Below, in pieces: positions 5,814-14,048 of a stretch of DNA of 14,048 bases. Below the pieces are notes generated by a model. The model was not told the origin of the DNA and did not search any database. It saw only the letters and a program-made list of their open reading frames with translations. How positions within the stretch are numbered: position 1 is the stretch's first letter; the number at the start of each line of letters is the position of its first letter. Source of the DNA: Calditrichaceae bacterium (GTDB lineage Bacteria; Calditrichota; Calditrichia; Calditrichales; JBFXGD01); contig JBFXGD010000086.1 in NCBI GenBank assembly GCA_050178385.1, forward strand, positions 1-14,048, read 5' to 3'. The translations under genes and the position numbers were made by a program.

Positions 5814-7352
5814 ATGACTGATAGAAAATTGTTAATCGGTGAACAAGATCTGACCTTGGATGACATCAAATTTTTTCTTAAATCAAATCCATTGATTGCG
5901 TTTGAAGAATCGGTCAGGAAAAAGATCAATGAGAGTCGTCAGATAATAAAAGATATTGTGGGATCTGGCAAAGTAGTTTACGGCGTGAATACCGGTTTTG
6001 GAAAATTCGCTGATGTAAAAATAAAAAAAGAGGAGACGGCAGAGCTGCAGCGCCGTCTTGTACTTAGTCATGCCGCGGGTGTAGGTAATCCCATGCCGGT
6101 GGAAACTGTCCGGTTAATGATGATTCTTAAAATAAAAAATTTATCCCAGGGTTATAGTGGGGTTAGGATCGAAGTCGTTCAAATGTTGGCGGATTTGTTG
6201 AATAAGGGGATCACACCGGTCGTTCCTGAAAAGGGATCCGTGGGCGCCAGCGGTGATCTCGCGCCCCTTGCGCATATGGCGCTTGTTTTAATCGGTGAGG
6301 GAGAAGCATTTTACGAAGGGAAGCGAATAGAGAGCAAAGAAGCGTTGCGGCGGGCCGGTTTAAAATCTCTTGTTCTGGAAGCAAAGGAAGGCCTGGCAAT
6401 CCTGAATGGTACTCAGGCCATACAGGCGCAGGGGATTCGGGCGTTGATTCAGGCGAAAAATCTTGTAAAATCAGCTGATATTATCGGCGCGGTCAGCCTG
6501 GAAGGACTGCTTGGAACATTATCCGCTTTCGATCCGAGGATACATGAAATACGCAGACATCCGGGGCAGCAGAAAGTCGCGGCCAATTTTCTTAAAATTT
6601 TACAGCACAGTCAAATTGTGGAATCTCACCGGTTTTCCGATCATCGCGTTCAGGATGCCTATAGCCTCCGCTGCATGCCGCAGGTACACGGCGCGGTGAG
6701 AGATGGTCTTGAGTATGTTGAATCTGTTTTTGTAAGAGAAATGAACGGTGTGACGGATAATCCGCTTGTGTTTCCCGATAACGGCGATGTTCTGTCCGGC
6801 GGAAATTTTCATGGTGAGCCTGTGGCGCTCGCCTCAGATTATCTCGGAATTATCATGGCGGAGATTGCGAATATATCCGAAAGGAGAATCGAGCATATGC
6901 TGGACCCGTCCGTGAGCGAAATGGCGGGATTTCTAACGGAAGATGGCGGATTAAATTCCGGTTTCATGATTGCTCAGGTGACAGCGGCGGCGCTTGTCTC
7001 AGAAAATAAGGTGCTTGCGCATCCGGCGAGTGTGGATTCCATTCCGACCTCCGCCAACAAGGAAGATCATGTGAGTATGGGGACCTACGCGGCGCGCAAG
7101 GCTCTGGAAATAGTGGGAAATGTTGAAAATGTTTTAGCTATTGAATTGATCTGCGGTTGTCAGGCGCTTGATCTGAGGGCTCCGTTTCAGCCATCCGCGG
7201 GCACGCTGGAAATACTGGATCTGGTCCGGTCAAAAATCGCGCACTGGAAGGAAGACCGCCTGATTCATAAAGATATCGATGCCGCCAGAGAGTTTATACA
7301 ATCTGGCGATGTCGTCAGTTATATGGAGAAAGTCACGGGTGAATTAGAATAG
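5814..7352 (+). CDS. hutH: Histidine ammonia-lyase (histidase)
   Basis: VYGVNTGFG, MIO-forming GSVGASGDLAPL, KEGLAILNGT, VQDAYSLRC, GGNFHG, SANKEDHVSMG. The LSHAAG substrate-selectivity motif is of the histidase type rather than PAL or TAL. ATG 5814 follows GGAG at 5803-5806. Confidence 0.95.
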   Translation: MTDRKLLIGEQDLTLDDIKFFLKSNPLIAFEESVRKKINESRQIIKDIVGSGKVVYGVNTGFGKFADVKIKKEETAELQRRLVLSHAAGVGNPMPVETVRLMMILKIKNLSQGYSGVRIEVVQMLADLLNKGITPVVPEKGSVGASGDLAPLAHMALVLIGEGEAFYEGKRIESKEALRRAGLKSLVLEAKEGLAILNGTQAIQAQGIRALIQAKNLVKSADIIGAVSLEGLLGTLSAFDPRIHEIRRHPGQQKVAANFLKILQHSQIVESHRFSDHRVQDAYSLRCMPQVHGAVRDGLEYVESVFVREMNGVTDNPLVFPDNGDVLSGGNFHGEPVALASDYLGIIMAEIANISERRIEHMLDPSVSEMAGFLTEDGGLNSGFMIAQVTAAALVSENKVLAHPASVDSIPTSANKEDHVSMGTYAARKALEIVGNVENVLAIELICGCQALDLRAPFQPSAGTLEILDLVRSKIAHWKEDRLIHKDIDAAREFIQSGDVVSYMEKVTGELE

Positions 7353-7384: not shown

Positions 7385-7413
7385 TTGAACGGTTGTTTTT
7401 ATTTTCATAGATT
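7385..7413 (+). promoter_or_regulatory. Candidate sigma70 promoter for the rpiB-like gene
   Basis: TTGAAC (7385-7390), a 17-bp spacer and TAGATT (7408-7413). It overlaps the ORF-track TTG at 7413, which favours the downstream TTG at 7443 as the start. Confidence 0.4.
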
Positions 7414-7442
7414 TGAAAAAAATTGATAGTACGGGGAATGTT

Positions 7443-8084
7443 TTGAAAAAATTAATACGGGAATTCGAAATTGTAACCGCGGCGAAGCTAAACAAAGTCG
7501 TTTTTATCGATAAAAATACGATTATCACACCACTCGCGAAGGATACCGCGCGTGAACTTGGTGTGGAATTTAAAGAATACAGGGAAGCGGATGTTACTGC
7601 GCTAAATCGTTCAGAAAAAGTCACGGAATCCTGGCCGGTTAAAAAAATTGCGATTGCGGCAGATCATGGGGGATACTATCTGAAAGAAGAGATAAAAGAA
7701 TTTTTACGTAAAATGGATTACGCCGTTTCAGATTTAGGTCCCATGAACGCCGACCCGTGTGATTATCCTGATTATGCCGTGCAGGTGGCAAGAATGGTCT
7801 CAACCGGTGAGGCTGAACGGGGAATCATGATTGATAGTGTGGGAATCGGGTCATCCATGGCGGCAAACCGCGTGCGCGGGGTACTCGCGGCGAAATGCAA
7901 CAATGCTTTCGAAGCGAGAAGCTGCCGGGAACATAACTTTGCCAATGTGTTGACGATGGGAAGCAAAGTAATCGGAAGTGAAGTCGCCAAAGAAATTGTA
8001 AAAGTATTCCTTGAGACTCCGGGTGGAGCTGAAAGACACAAACGCAGGATTGATAAAATTTTGGCGATGGACAATGGGAAGTAG
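7443..8084 (+). CDS. rpiB: RpiB/LacA/LacB family sugar-phosphate isomerase with a ~66-aa N-terminal extension
   Basis: From 7641 the sequence is RpiB-like: IAIAADHGG, DYPDYA, GIMIDSVGIG, AANRVRGV, REHNFANVL, ERHKRRI. Probable start is TTG 7443 (GGGGA at 7433-7437), giving MKKLIREFEI...; alternative start 7413. Confidence 0.85.
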   Translation: MKKLIREFEIVTAAKLNKVVFIDKNTIITPLAKDTARELGVEFKEYREADVTALNRSEKVTESWPVKKIAIAADHGGYYLKEEIKEFLRKMDYAVSDLGPMNADPCDYPDYAVQVARMVSTGEAERGIMIDSVGIGSSMAANRVRGVLAAKCNNAFEARSCREHNFANVLTMGSKVIGSEVAKEIVKVFLETPGGAERHKRRIDKILAMDNGK

Positions 8085-8434
8085 GAAGTAAGAAGTAGGA
8101 AGTAGGAAGTTTAAGAAAAAAGATAAAAGAAAAAAGAAAAAAGAGTCAGAACGGGCTGTTTCTGTGGACGAAGTAGGAAGTGGGAAGTAAGAAGTAAGAA
8201 GTGGGAAGTTTAAGAAAAAAGATAAAAGAAAAAAGAAAAAAGAGTCAGAACGGGCTGTTTCTGTGGACGAAGTAAGAAGTAGGAAGTAAGAAGTAGGAAG
8301 TGGGAAGTTTAAGAAAAAAGATAAAAGAAAAAAGAAAAAAGAGTCAGAGCGGGCTGTTTCTGTGGACGAAGTAGGAAGTGAGAAGTAAGAAGTAGGAAGT
8401 TTAAGAAAAAAGATAAAAGAAAAAAGAAAAAAGA
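8075..8434 (+). repeat. Higher-order tandem array (period 99, 99, 92 bp) of TRRGAAG heptamer runs alternating with a 64-bp constant block
   Basis: The constant block TTTAAG-AAAAAAG-ATAAAAG-AAAAAAG-AAAAAAG-AGTCAGAACGGGCTGTTTCTGTGGACGAAG occurs at 8110-8173, 8209-8272 and 8308-8371 (one A>G at 8349), and partially at 8400-8434. Heptamer runs occur at 8075-8109, 8174-8208, 8273-8307 (5 units each) and 8372-8399 (4 units). Confidence 0.97.
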
Positions 8435-8443
8435 TGAAGAACG

Positions 8444-8536
8444 GTCTGAACCCGGATTAAAATGATTAAATGATGTGCATGATTAAGAAATTGGAAATCA
8501 GAGTCATCATGTAATCAGGCGAATCATAGTTCAGAC
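8444..8536 (+). repeat. 93-bp hairpin/REP-like element, copy 1
   Basis: Terminal inverted repeats GTCTGAAC (8444-8451) and GTTCAGAC (8529-8536). GAT(T) motifs recur every 8-9 nt in the left arm and (A)ATC motifs in the right arm. It matches the reverse complement of 13371-13463 at 85 of 93 positions by manual alignment. Confidence 0.9.
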
Positions 8537-8650
8537 AAAGAAGTAAGAAGTGGAATGGGGAATCGGGATAAGATAGTTCCCTAAAAACAAGACGTGTTCA
8601 TCAAAATTTATCCTGCTTTGTATTTAATAAATAAACGCAGAGGAGATTCT

Positions 8651-10111
8651 GTGAAAGATAAAATTCTGGGTGAAGCCTTAACCTTTGATGATGTATTGCT
8701 GGTGCCGGCGAGATCAAGTGTTCTGCCGCGCGATGTTTTGGTTTCAACAAAACTCACACAAAATATTACCTTAAATATTCCCATATTATCCGCAGCCATG
8801 GATACCGTAACCGAGTATGAATTGGCGATTGCTCTTGCCCGCGAAGGGGGCATCGGTATAATTCACAAGAATATGACCATCGATCAACAGGCTCAGCAGG
8901 TGGATCGTGTAAAACGGTCGGAAAGCGGTATGATCAGTCATCCGGTGACGCTGGGACCTCAACGCAAGCTTAGTGAAGCGCTTGAAATGATGCGCAAATA
9001 TCATATTTCCGGTATTCCAATCGTAGATAATCAAAAATTAGTCGGTATTCTGACAAACCGCGATCTGAGATTCGAAACAGATCTTGACCGCACCATTGAT
9101 AAGATAATGACAAAGAACAATCTCATTACTGCTCCCATAGGCACATCTCTTGAAGAAGCCGAAATTATCCTGCAAAAACACAGAATCGAAAAATTATTGA
9201 TCGTTGATAATAAGAATGAACTCAAAGGACTGATCACCGTTAAGGATATTCAGAAAAAGAAGATGTTCCCGGATGCCTGCAAGGATGAAGAGGGACGGTT
9301 GAGAGTCGGCGCCGCCATCGGTGTTGGGGAAAGCGGATTGGAACGCGCCGAAGCTTTAATAAAAGCCAGGGTTGATGTGATCGTGATTGATACCGCTCAT
9401 GGCCATTCTGAGGGTGTCATCGAATCGGTCAGAAATTTTAAAAAGCGGTTTCCTAAAATGCAGCTGATAGCCGGTAATATCGCAACCGCAACCGCGGCTA
9501 AAGATCTTATTGATGCCGGTGTTGACGGTCTGAAAGTCGGAATCGGACCTGGGTCAATCTGCACAACACGTGTGGTAACCGGCATCGGAGTTCCTCAAAT
9601 TTACGCGGTAATGGAAGTTGCCGGTGTGGCAAAAAAATATGGAATACCCGTCATTGCGGATGGCGGAATAAAATACTCCGGTGATATCGCCAAAGCCGTT
9701 GCCGCAGGGGCTGACAGTATCATGATTGGCAGTCTGTTCGCGGGAACGGATGAAAGCCCGGGTGAGACGATACTGCTTGACGGCCGGAGTTTTAAAGCGG
9801 TACGGGGAATGGGTTCTCTCGGAGCTATGGCGGAGGGCAGTAAAGACCGTTATTTCCAGGATGGCCTTTCTGTGGACAAACTGGTCCCGGAAGGCATTGA
9901 AGGAAGGGTACCTTATCGCGGACCATTGAGAAACACGGTTTTTCAGATGGTTGGCGGATTACGGTCGGCAATGGGATATACCGGGTGTCAGTCTATTGAA
10001 GAGATGAAAGACCGGGCTCAGTTTGTAAAAATGAGTTCTGCCGGTCTGCAGGAAAGCCACCCGCATGATGTCATAATCACAAAAGAGTCGCCAAATTACA
10101 GCACCAGATAA
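8651..10111 (+). CDS. guaB: IMP dehydrogenase (with CBS pair)
   Basis: [30 protein letters not shown] region, DTAHGHS, catalytic loop [29 protein letters not shown]. The true start is likely GTG 8651, after AGGAG at 8641-8645. Confidence 0.97.
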
Positions 10112-11752: not shown

Positions 11753-12865
11753 ATGAGGATGTCAAATTTTATTTTCTCATTTATTGTCATAGTTCATGCT
11801 TTAATTCATCTTTTAGGATTCGCAAAAGCCTATAACTTTGGCAGCATTCAACAATTAACAAAAGTTATCTCAAAACCGATGGGTATGATTTGGTTATTTA
11901 CCTTTCTGTTATTTGTGATAACCGTACTGCTTTTTTGGATGAACAAGAATATGTGGCCTGCCCTGGCAATAATTTCTGTTATTTTTTCTCAGATACTAAT
12001 TCTGACGGTGTGGAGCGATGCAAAATTCGGAACAGTTGCTAATATTATTGTGCTTGCGGCTGCGTTGCCCGCCTTGGGTAATATCCAGTTTAATAACATG
12101 ATTGAGAAAGAACAAAAAGAGCTGCTTGGGAGCGTTGCCATGGATGCCGGTACCATTGTTGATAGTACGGGGATAAATCACCTACCCGTCATTATTCAGA
12201 AATGGTTTAAGTTTTCAGGAGTGATCAACAAACCAAAGGCGGTTTTTGTCAGATTAAAACAACAAGGGGAGATGAAGACAAAACCGGATGGTAAATGGAT
12301 GAGTTTCAAGGCGGATGAGTATTTTGACGCAAGAAAACCTTCATTCATATGGGTAACCCGTGTTTGGATGATGCCGCTTATTTATCTGAACGGCCGTGAT
12401 AAGTTCAAAGAAGGCGAAGGCGAAATGCTCATCAGGTTGCTCTCTCTGGTAAATGTTGTAAACGAAGGACATAATGAAAAAATGAATACGGGAGCCATGT
12501 TAAGATATTTGGGGGAAGTCTGCTGGTTCCCCTCGGCCGCCATTAACGATTATATGAACTGGGAAGAAATTGACTCTTTATCGGCAAAAGCCATCATGAC
12601 CTATAAAAACAGGAGTGTTTCCGGAGTTTTCACTTTTAAGGATAACGGAGAAATGGTTTCATTTCAGGCTGACCGTTATTTTGGTGGTGGGGCGGATGCA
12701 AAATTAGAAAAGTGGCTTGTAGAAATGGTGGAGTATAAAGAATTCGATGGATATCGCATCCCTAATAAATGTAAAGTCATCTGGAAATTAAACGAAGGCG
12801 ATTTCACATGGCTGGATCTGGAGATCGTTGATTTAGATATCAACACGTTTCAGCTTTATGAATAG
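11753..12865 (+). CDS. Membrane-anchored protein, DUF6544-like
   Basis: 370 aa with four N-terminal hydrophobic helices (HALIHLLGF...WSDAKFGT). The soluble domain contains HLP, LKQQGEMK, FIW, RDKF..GEGEM, LRYLGE..WFP and G.RIP..C...W, as I recall for DUF6544. Start could be 11753 or 11759. Confidence 0.75.
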   Translation: MRMSNFIFSFIVIVHALIHLLGFAKAYNFGSIQQLTKVISKPMGMIWLFTFLLFVITVLLFWMNKNMWPALAIISVIFSQILILTVWSDAKFGTVANIIVLAAALPALGNIQFNNMIEKEQKELLGSVAMDAGTIVDSTGINHLPVIIQKWFKFSGVINKPKAVFVRLKQQGEMKTKPDGKWMSFKADEYFDARKPSFIWVTRVWMMPLIYLNGRDKFKEGEGEMLIRLLSLVNVVNEGHNEKMNTGAMLRYLGEVCWFPSAAINDYMNWEEIDSLSAKAIMTYKNRSVSGVFTFKDNGEMVSFQADRYFGGGADAKLEKWLVEMVEYKEFDGYRIPNKCKVIWKLNEGDFTWLDLEIVDLDINTFQLYE

Positions 12866-13230
12866 AAAGTCAAAAATTTATACAAAACTAATCGGCTGTC
12901 TGAAGCACGGATAAGCAGGGAAATTTCCGGACGGATTAGATGCGGGTAGTTTAATTTCTCACCGCTTTTTAACTCTTTGAAAATTACATTGATAAGAAAT
13001 TAAGCGAGCAGAAAGAAATATTTTATCCTATGGAAAACGAATTTAAAAAGGATGCGAAATATCTTTTTATTCCTGACTCCATAAGAGGCGTCATCAAGTC
13101 GAATGGTGATTTACACAATAAAATTGAACTTCTCAAACAGATAAATTTTACGGAAATAACCGCCAGTTCCGGCTATTAAATAATAAAAATATTACTTAAG
13201 AATCCCGCGTCTTCAGCACAATATCTTACT

Positions 13231-13286
13231 CATAACTCATAACTCATAACTCTTAACTCTTAACTCATAACGCTTAACTCTTAACG
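13231..13286. repeat. Heptamer tandem repeat C(A/T)TAAC(T/G) x8
   Basis: CATAACT x3, CTTAACT x2, CATAACG, CTTAACT, CTTAACG, read directly from the sequence. Confidence 0.95.
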
Positions 13287-13370
13287 CTTTTAATTCCCAT
13301 TTCCTGCTTCAGACACAGGGTTTCTTCATTTTTTTCTTATTTCTTAAACTTCTTACTTATTCCCTTCTTT

Positions 13371-13463
13371 GTCTGAACTATGATTCGCCTGATTACATGA
13401 ATACTCTGATTTCCAACTTTTTAATCATGGTCATCATTTAATCATTTTAATCTGAGTTCAGAC
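13371..13463 (-). repeat. 93-bp hairpin/REP-like element, copy 2 (inverted relative to 8444-8536)
   Basis: Same terminal inverted repeats, with 8 substitutions and no indels relative to copy 1. Its flanks carry the reverse complements of the A-rich heptamer block (about 13473-13498) and of TAAGAAG-TTTAAG (13343-13355). Confidence 0.92.
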
Positions 13464-13508
13464 CGTTTTTACTCTTTTTTCTTTTATCTTTTTTCTTTCA
13501 ATTCATCT

Positions 13509-13624
13509 TTCTTCTAACCCACCCCGGGCCTGATAAATCATGCCCTTCCCCTCCCTTATGCATAAGGGAGGGGATAGAGGGGAGGGGCAGTCTCTTGCAA
13601 AACAGAAAATTCGCCCCGAAGAAT
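13509..13624. repeat. 116-bp direct repeat, copy A, with a REP-like palindrome
   Basis: Identical to 13802-13917 except at one base (13587 G vs 13880 T). Contains the perfect 28-bp palindrome TCCCCTCCCTTATGCATAAGGGAGGGGA at 13547-13574. Confidence 0.95.
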
Positions 13625-13744
13625 CCTATTTTCTAAATCCTTCCAAGGTAGCCAAAGATGCCTGCGGCATGACATACGGGTAGATTAACCGGGTTCACCG
13701 CGGTTGACTATGACATCACGCGCACAAATTGGGACGCCCCTACT

Positions 13745-13772
13745 CTTAACTCTTAACTCTTTTCTCTTAACG
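13745..13772. repeat. Second, shorter CTTAAC(T/G) heptamer run
   Basis: CTTAACT, CTTAACT, CTTTTCT, CTTAACG, followed by a tail (...TTTAATT...CCCATTTCCT.CTTC) similar to the tail after the 13231-13286 run. Confidence 0.8.
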
Positions 13773-13801
13773 CTCTTTAATTCTCACTTCCCATTTCCTC
13801 C

Positions 13802-13917
13802 TTCTTCTAACCCACCCCGGGCCTGATAAATCATGCCCTTCCCCTCCCTTATGCATAAGGGAGGGGATAGAGGGGAGGGTCAGTCTCTTGCAAAACAGAA
13901 AATTCGCCCCGAAGAAT
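13802..13917. repeat. 116-bp direct repeat, copy B, with a REP-like palindrome
   Basis: Offset 293 bp from copy A. Palindrome at 13840-13867. An outer imperfect stem can form between ACCCACCCC and GGGGAGGGT. Confidence 0.95.
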
Positions 13918-14048
13918 TTCGAAACGCAATAGTTGAATCTGAAACTCTTAACTCTTTTTTCTTTTATCTTTTATCTTTTCCTTCGTACTTCCTCCCACAA
14001 TTGCTAAATGGCGATTTAATCCTTAATTTTCCTCATTAAAAATTTAGT

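Follow-up and report, generated by a model that had tools for sequence, protein, structure and literature searches.

How can the runs of a short tandem repeat differ in every copy of an array while the blocks between them stay almost unchanged, and does such a pattern call for a dedicated diversification system? This question is raised by an intergenic, non-coding array at positions 8075-8434 of a stretch of 14,048 nucleotides (the window in the following) from a Calditrichaceae bacterium (contig JBFXGD010000086.1 of assembly GCA_050178385.1), which is located between the genes rpiB and guaB. The array comprises four (TRRGAAG)n runs of 5, 5, 5 and 4 units, with R for A or G (H-runs in the following), interleaved with three 64-bp blocks. 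Among all three blocks a single base differs, with an A in blocks 1 and 2 and a G at 8349 in block 3. All 19 heptamers keep T..GAAG, and the doublets at the two R positions were determined as AG in 8, AA in 6, GG in 4 and GA in 1 unit. Accordingly, A<->G is the sole type of change in the heptamers of the array and is confined to two of the four adenine positions per unit. The coordinates, the 19 doublets and the one-base difference had been given in an initial annotation made from the letters alone, and all of them were exactly reproduced. Tandem Repeats Finder (TRF) assigned a period of 99, 3.8 copies and a score of 618 to the array. Compared over the three complete 99-bp copies, 5 of the 10 R columns vary, while only 1 of the 89 other columns does (Fisher p = 2e-5).

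The array is real, and it is a local 99-base duplication of three repeat modules that are scattered across the Calditrichaceae genome. Its variation is probably explained by a 99-bp higher-order tandem duplication (3.6 copies) within a mosaic cluster of dispersed repeats, which changes by ordinary repeat instability and involves no dedicated diversifier.

Dispersed modules of the array

The genome of the window is a metagenome bin of 3.89 Mb in 320 contigs with a completeness of 94%. A search with the three-unit TRRGAAG pattern gave 225 matches in this genome compared to 0 for the reversed control, and 171 runs of two or more units were found on 65 contigs, the longest of them with 12 units. 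In these runs the doublets AG (292), AA (200), GA (42) and GG (33) all occur, and the A/G variation at both R positions therefore belongs to the whole TRRGAAG family. While the 28-mer of H-run 4 is also present at two further loci of the genome, no exact copy of H-runs 1-3 was found elsewhere in it, and thus neither an ectopic donor nor a template copy. Two other heptamer families were observed, namely (AAGAWAA)n with 169 runs (A-runs) and (GTTAAGA)n with 47 runs (S-runs), and 7 is the commonest TRF period genome-wide (522 of 1899 rows).

The first part of each 64-bp block, the A-module TTTAAG-(AAGAWAA)4-AAGAG, is present on many contigs. Within the array it recurs identically at 8209-8244 and 8308-8343 and partially at 8400-8434. 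Its W pattern ATAA makes up 27 of the 89 four-unit A-run patterns elsewhere, with 165 A-runs lying outside the array. The second part of the block, a 28-nt core, is the remnant of a dispersed element of about 60 nt, from which the CCCCC...GGGGG hairpin between two GTTTC repeats is missing; three copies of the long form are found in contig C119, and the copies in the window are 32 nt shorter. The complete 64-bp block has no occurrence in the genome outside the contig of the window. No significant fold was obtained for the core (z +0.31), all the arrays in 8075-8434 share a single strand and form no hairpin, and C is absent from the sense strand of the H and A modules, as can be read directly. 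Dispersal over the whole genome, a property that was not visible in the single stretch on which the initial annotation was based, holds true for the heptamer, for the A-rich half of the block and for the element following the array.

The modules are also combined in a regular manner. Genome-wide, 267 pairs of neighbouring arrays are on the same strand compared to 15 that are opposed, and in the 162 close neighbour pairs the order H>A was determined 96 times, A>H 25, H>S 17 and A>S 14 times. Five higher-order arrays with H- or A-runs were identified in the genome, with periods of 79, 99, 172, 294 and 375, and the regions examined in the congener contained at least seven more. A GC-rich and hairpin-rich element of about 300 nt was seen recurring between heptamer runs on another contig (C53:1-9200). 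Both this element and the reverse strand of the runs, which is open (LLLTSYF... peptides), are crossed by spurious open reading frames (ORFs) that could lead gene callers astray.

Among the relatives, the congener (G001) gave 334 three-unit matches with a longest run of about 48 units, and 8 of 39 other order- or class-level relatives gave 2-26. An H-run is present in 10 of 41 relatives. With the four-unit pattern, 18 of 86 genomes of the phylum were positive, the two genomes of this genus showing by far the highest numbers. The reversed pattern (GAAGRRT x4) gave 60 and 13 matches in G061, a genome of the same class that seems to have an abundant heptamer family of its own.

Turnover of the heptamer runs

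The assumption that the runs diversify faster than their surroundings was borne out by the array itself, by an array of the congener and by a comparison of two assemblies next to guaB. In the congener, a 172-bp array of 3.1 copies within a 264-kb contig showed variation in 7 of 10 R columns, while its block of about 116 nt is almost constant (4 variable columns by period slices, which include register shifts due to unit indels, and 1 when two copies were aligned). For the run proximal to guaB, the congener and an independent metagenome contig comprise 6 and 3 H units and 4 and 3 A units, respectively, while the flank shows 1 substitution in about 220 nt (99.5% identity), both sequences being short-read assemblies. 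A metagenome scan for the guaB leader yielded one contig, which belongs to the congener lineage; the corresponding scan for the 28-nt core found none. When five arrays were pooled, 10 of 53 columns at variant positions, 6 of 185 other heptamer columns and 49 of 860 non-heptamer columns varied, so that the variant positions with 10 of 53 stand against 55 of 1045 for all other columns (Fisher p = 7e-4). The 294-bp array of C119 has identical H-runs and differing A-run patterns. Fast turnover is therefore not specific to TRRGAAG.

The three five-unit runs of the window differ from each other at 4, 3 and 3 of the 10 R sites, which corresponds to a mean of 3.33. For random five-unit windows of unrelated runs, 3.61 differences per 10 R sites were calculated, and 51% of random triples were as close as the observed one. 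Since these distances are at the random level, positional ancestry has been erased. Two types of events were compared in toy simulations, whose outcome is only indicative. When units were gained and lost independently, no more than 1.7% of the simulations combined a near-constant length with the distance seen in the array. When 1-2 units at a time were transferred between the four runs, irrespective of register and without a change in length, 41-60% of the simulations reached this combination after 8-16 events. Of the two processes suggested initially, slippage or recombination among heptamers thus stands as the favoured mechanism, with the correction that plain unit gain and loss fits poorly and that an exchange preserving the length is needed. 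A single unequal crossover was rejected, as the inner runs are by eye no chimeras of the outer ones and the GG of unit 5 occurs in neither parent.

The following course of events would account for these data. A repeat cluster would have been inserted at the rpiB-guaB junction before the split of the species and its congener, and a 99-bp unit consisting of a (TRRGAAG)n run, an (AAGAWAA)4 module and the decayed remnant of a small hairpin element would then have been duplicated. The four unit variants, with TAG, TAA, TGA or TGG before GAAG, differ at the two R positions alone. Out-of-register pairing of such units mismatches only at the R positions, which could explain why nothing except A<->G changes at R is seen. 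The events themselves may have been transient misalignment with mismatch correction, or short-patch conversion between runs inside the array or with runs elsewhere. Misalignment or conversion among such variants would lead to position specificity without a dedicated enzyme, and the array would have no function of its own. A comparable behaviour is known from the variant-repeat interspersion (MVR) patterns of minisatellites, in which few unit variants exist and their order changes far faster than the flanks via misaligned, conversion-like exchange. These are eukaryotic, meiotic and long arrays, in contrast to the bacterial runs of 2-12 units inside a larger duplicated unit described here. Transient-misalignment mutagenesis is likewise a process that resembles the proposed shuffling of units.

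Several observations weigh against this explanation. Ordinary instability usually alters the number of units, as it does between strains, while the array has kept lengths of 5, 5, 5 and 4, and of the 167 other runs only 12 share the length of five units. All four A-runs of the array have the same pattern ATAA, for which a chance of 0.028 was calculated on the assumption of independence, and the scrambling of the H-runs therefore spared a heptamer run 1 nt away. GG units are modestly enriched, with 4 of 19 in the array compared to 5.3% genome-wide (p = 0.016), which hints at a local and not at a genome-wide exchange. Local exchange cannot create the single GA unit, which was produced by neither of the toy models, and both models assume an ancestor and simple types of events. 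Finally, the absence of antisense arrays within 28 nt of stop codons and the persistence of arrays at orthologous sites, described below, fit a function or a targeted insertion equally well.

The rpiB-guaB locus and the placement at stop codons

The coordinates of the features in the window are summarized in Table 1. The first H-run overlaps the end of rpiB, whose stop codon (TAG, 8082-8084) is supplied by the second heptamer unit, resulting in a C-terminus of ...KILAMDNGK* instead of the ...KILNY...* of repeat-free relatives. In the congener, rpiB stops with a TAA from a different heptamer unit, and the last residues differ. Among 12 repeat-free relatives examined, the gap between rpiB and guaB is 0-20 nt in 5, the genes being adjacent or overlapping, while the spacer here comprises 566 nt (8085-8650) and is filled with repeats. 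As guaB starts 0-20 nt after rpiB in those relatives, the spacer is an insertion into a formerly tight junction. In the congener, the orthologous spacer extends over two contigs; it carries runs at either end, and its inner modules differ. The 99-bp array is therefore younger than the split of the two species.

Table 1. Features of the window with their positions and strands.
Feature	Position	Strand	Remarks
rpiB	7413..8084	+	ribose-5-phosphate isomerase B family; Pfam LacAB_rpiB, E 5e-50
H-run 1, (TRRGAAG)5	8075..8109	+	RR GG-AG-AA-AG-AG
H-run 2, five units	8174..8208	+	RR AG-GG-AA-AA-GG
H-run 3, five units	8273..8307	+	RR AA-AG-AA-AG-GG
H-run 4, four units	8372..8399	+	RR AG-GA-AA-AG
64-bp blocks	8110-8173, 8209-8272, 8308-8371	+	partial fourth block of 35 nt, 8400-8434
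A-module 1	8110..8145	+	TTTAAG + (AAGAWAA)4 (W = A-T-A-A) + AAGAG; dispersed module
28-nt core TCAGAACGGGCTGTTTCTGTGGACGAAG	8146..8173	+	copies 8245-8272 and 8344-8371 (A>G at 8349)
Palindromic terminal-inverted-repeat (TIR) element GGTCTGAAC...GTTCAGAC	8436..8545	none	dispersed family; stem 8444-8537
guaB leader	8546..8650	+	105 nt; self-match only in genome
guaB	8651..10111	+	IMP dehydrogenase; GTG start set by alignment with relatives; Pfam IMPDH, E 5e-166
Second cluster	13228..14048	-	S-runs, TIR element, A-runs, GGGAGGG palindromes; contig ends inside

The palindromic element that follows the array showed a fold of -30.7 kcal/mol (z -4.8), which none of 200 shuffles equalled. It gave 35 further matches of at least 80 nt, with 24 contigs including the query, and an inverted copy lies at 13364-13470 of the window. 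In the congener, the same GGTCTGAAC...GTTCAGAC element was also observed in tandem arrays, the periods of which are 169 and 172 bp. The leader ahead of guaB is absent in repeat-free relatives and conserved with the congener from about 8575, based on the alignment with G001 and the metagenome contig; it is possibly a new promoter. In the second cluster of the window, a GGGAGGG...CCCTCCC palindrome with TTATGCATAA at its centre occurs twice. An insert with inverted ends (CAGGCTGTTGCAG...; L032:1-130, L112:1400-1530) splits the TTATGCATAA palindrome of the orthologous spacer in the congener lineage; this insert may be an insertion sequence targeting the palindrome and coincides with the contig break.

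The position of the first H-run at a stop codon is no peculiarity of rpiB. Based on crude ORF calls of at least 110 aa, 165 of the 171 TRRGAAG runs lie outside ORFs, and spacers between co-directional genes carry exclusively sense arrays in 34 cases, exclusively antisense arrays in 9 and a mixture of both in 5. A sense array within 400 nt downstream was found for 63 genes, and in 53 of them it starts between -22 and +29 nt of the stop codon; in 18 genes the array overlaps the end of the ORF and a repeat unit provides the stop. Antisense arrays showed the opposite, with all 22 at a distance of 29 nt or more from the stop. The same holds true for 20 regions of the congener that were chosen for runs alone, where 13 of 15 sense arrays were located close to the stop, and a distance of at least 36 nt was observed for 7 of 7 antisense arrays. 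Several array sites are orthologous between both species, with differing unit numbers and R patterns. Since the TAA, TAG and TGA variants of the unit hold a stop codon (TGG does not), a sense run halts all three frames, while the reverse strand of TRRGAAG runs is open in all of them. Sense arrays would accordingly be tolerated at gene ends through their stop-bearing units. The tandem 7-nt unit, the many loci, the placement and the differences in unit number between strains are those of the dispersed intergenic heptameric repeats described as long simple sequence repeats (LSSR) or short tandemly repeated repetitive sequences (STRR).

An alternative reading of this placement, which we regard as unlikely although more probable than the other rivals, is that the arrays function in cis at the 3' ends of genes, acting on transcript ends, mRNA stability or the handling of ribosomes after the stop, or that they are protein-binding arrays, for example for the TIGR02436 protein discussed below. 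The R positions would then be free or serve for tuning, and in the 99-bp array such a site would have been multiplied. The non-random position and strand, with none of the 22 antisense arrays at a stop and a repetition of the pattern in the congener, the retention of arrays at orthologous gene ends in both species despite the turnover of units, and the lack of C on the sense strand of both modules are in line with it, as are the A-runs that bracket the sole TIGR02436 gene of the genome. According to two studies, transcripts start and stop at similarly placed G-rich heptamers of Xanthomonas more often than at controls (PMC4692102), and heptamer repeats of Nostoc affected promoter reporters (bioRxiv 10.1101/2022.06.06.494920). 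Against a cis element speak the 99-nt unit, which is unfolded (z +0.73), the absence of sigma-70-like promoters and intrinsic terminators in 7900-8750, and an Rfam scan that returned sub-threshold chance matches only. Moreover, the number and composition of units vary freely among copies, strains and species, and neither CsrA, present in 35 of 41 relatives, nor TIGR02436, present in 40 of 41, tracks the H-runs with their occurrence in 10 of 41. The narrower proposal of a CsrA sponge, based on the resemblance of TAGGAAG to GGA-type sites, was rejected for the same reason, as CsrA is found regardless of runs.

Other explanations and related repeat systems

It is improbable that the assembly produced the order, number or content of the runs by threading strain variants of only one or two real copies into a single tandem path. 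Such artefacts have to be considered since 27 of the 171 runs are no more than 200 nt from a contig end, a contig break divides the orthologous spacer of the congener and the window itself ends in the repeat set. Furthermore, the contrast between blocks and runs is partly made by ascertainment, because a short-read assembler threads such arrays only where the runs differ. On the other hand, each of runs 2-4 follows a core that is unique to the locus, so that their patterns must exist in reads of the locus. Alternative contigs with the 64-bp block are absent from the genome, the period and the blocks are exact, and a similar layout is present in the separately assembled congener within its 264-kb contig. 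A search of sequencing sets with words of the window gave 17 matches, the best with 0.43 of the words; these were contigs only and no RNA set was listed.

The initial annotation mentioned that 7-mer repeats flank genes of the TIGR02436 four-helix-bundle family, stated that no such gene is in the window and proposed that any effector would act in trans. Genes of this family (TIGR02436 / PF05635, 'S23p') are known from intervening sequences (IVS) of 23S rRNA, as for example the Coxiella IVS. This link is real in this order: among 16 TIGR02436 loci sampled from 10 relatives, arrays of 7-8-nt units flank the gene on both sides in 9 and on a single side in 4, which amounts to 13 of 16 compared to 0 arrays in 43.5 kb of control loci. 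These arrays are often reverse-complementary, and each copy of the gene has a unit of its own. The window indeed lacks such a gene, the sole match of the genome being located on another contig (C187:5981-6292), where inverted AAGAWAA runs bracket it at 5844-5871 (+) and 6383-6410 (-). These brackets share their unit with the A-module only and not with TRRGAAG. An effector acting in trans found no support, since the occurrence of TIGR02436 does not follow that of the H-runs and the two genomes rich in runs have one copy of the gene each, while a run-free one has 12.

A heptamer-armed four-helix-bundle cassette at the locus of the window was rejected as well, as no TIGR02436 / PF05635 gene lies between arms and no complementary arms can pair; compared to IVS-type cassettes, the arrays are one-directional and without a hairpin. 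We give only a small chance to the further-reaching idea that the TRRGAAG and AAGAWAA arrays are gene-less, one-armed and IVS-like derivatives of TIGR02436 cassettes and would still serve the TIGR02436 protein or a partner as cis sites. In this case, the system would have placed itself at the stops of more than 60 genes, and the R diversity would be kept by homology-guided rewriting that preserves the length. If true, it would tie the excess of heptamer repeats in bacteria to one specific protein family. Another gene family that had been named as a possible neighbour, GxxExxY, was represented by a TIGR04256 match on contig C16, which is 1.1 kb from the nearest array, and a link was therefore rejected.

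Repeated insertion of a 64-bp module into a long heterogeneous (TRRGAAG)n array, in which the runs were never identical, is quite improbable. It would agree with RR patterns that are as dissimilar as those of unrelated runs, with the existence of long arrays of 12 and about 48 units in the two genomes and with the junction from a run to the TTTAAG of an A-module, which is stereotyped genome-wide (H>A in 96 of 162 pairs). However, the 5-5-5-4 spacing and the exact 99-bp period are expected from duplication, the block with its deleted core occurs nowhere else in the genome, no mobility gene is linked, and Y1 transposase-like genes carry other repeats. The genome has four Y1_Tnp matches. One of them, in C62:11081-12700, is a Y1-transposase gene (11864-12205) resembling the tyrosine transposases associated with repetitive extragenic palindromes (RAYT), which has an AT-rich repeat of about 137 bp, unrelated to the heptamers, on both flanks. 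Repetitive extragenic palindromes (REP) mobilized by a RAYT were therefore rejected for this inspected gene.

A templated, position-specific rewriting of the two R positions as in diversity-generating retroelements (DGR), the second process suggested initially, can be dismissed as extremely improbable: although the variation is limited to two positions per unit with the run length kept and the A-runs untouched, and the genome contains an Avd-like four-helix-bundle gene at another locus, a search for RVT_1 gave no match in this 94%-complete genome, the changes are A<->G and not adenine to any base with the other two adenines per unit invariant, a coding target and a template copy of runs 1-3 are missing, the R variation is common to all 171 runs of the family, and C119 varies its A-runs instead. 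A CRISPR array was rejected too, since the variable parts are the genome's own heptamer and the constant part is composed of dispersed modules; no search for cas genes was made.

The array resembles the bacterial interspersed mosaic elements (BIME) of enterobacteria, intergenic mosaics of short motifs including REP with a variable order and a palindromic member, which are typically found after gene ends. They differ in that the modules here are mostly tandem heptamers and that the RAYT-like gene of the genome carries a different repeat.

A closer relation exists to heptamer tandem repeats, which show the strongest over-representation of all long simple repeats in many bacteria; their origin and role are described as unexplained in two studies (PMC4679880, PMC4692102). 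Rehm et al. 2015 reported the G-rich heptamers GGGAATC in Xanthomonas and GGGGA(T/C)T in Nostoc, most of those in Xanthomonas being transcribed (PMC4692102). Like TRRGAAG, these form many dispersed tandem runs with the same placement and are farther off when on the other strand (PMC4692102). In contrast to them, the unit of TRRGAAG is a different one that permits no G-quadruplex, the phylum is Calditrichota, and three families are joined with palindromic elements and duplicated as units of 79-375 bp. TAACTGA heptamers were described by MacGregor 2015 for Beggiatoaceae, Cyanobacteria and Bacteroidetes, in a text that also summarises the work of Mrazek et al. 2007 on long simple sequence repeats (PMC4679880). 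They share with the present case a patchy phylogenetic spread, a high number (169 sets in one genome), mixed heptamer assemblages in some species, 7-nt indels between close strains, contigs ending in repeats and stop codons in the unit (PMC4679880). In the Beggiatoaceae genome, these repeats are located directly upstream of start codons, while the TRRGAAG arrays abut the stop of the upstream gene (PMC4679880 for the former). A literature search gave no paper naming both heptamer repeats and Calditrichaeota among the matches listed, and the genome paper of Caldithrix abyssi makes no mention of heptamer or tandem repeats. Searches on TIGR02436 found no paper, and those on intervening sequence protein, four helix bundle, heptamer and Avd nothing relevant.

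On present evidence, the array of the window thus belongs to the already known class of dispersed intergenic heptamers and does not represent a new diversification system. The heptamer families of this Calditrichaceae genus are a dense and unusually legible case of this class, with a fixed order of H, then A, then S. Young higher-order duplicates separate the fast changes, which concern the unit variants, from the slow ones, which concern everything else, and the shuffling of R positions in runs that keep their length next to an unchanged A-run offers a concrete handle on repeat mutation.

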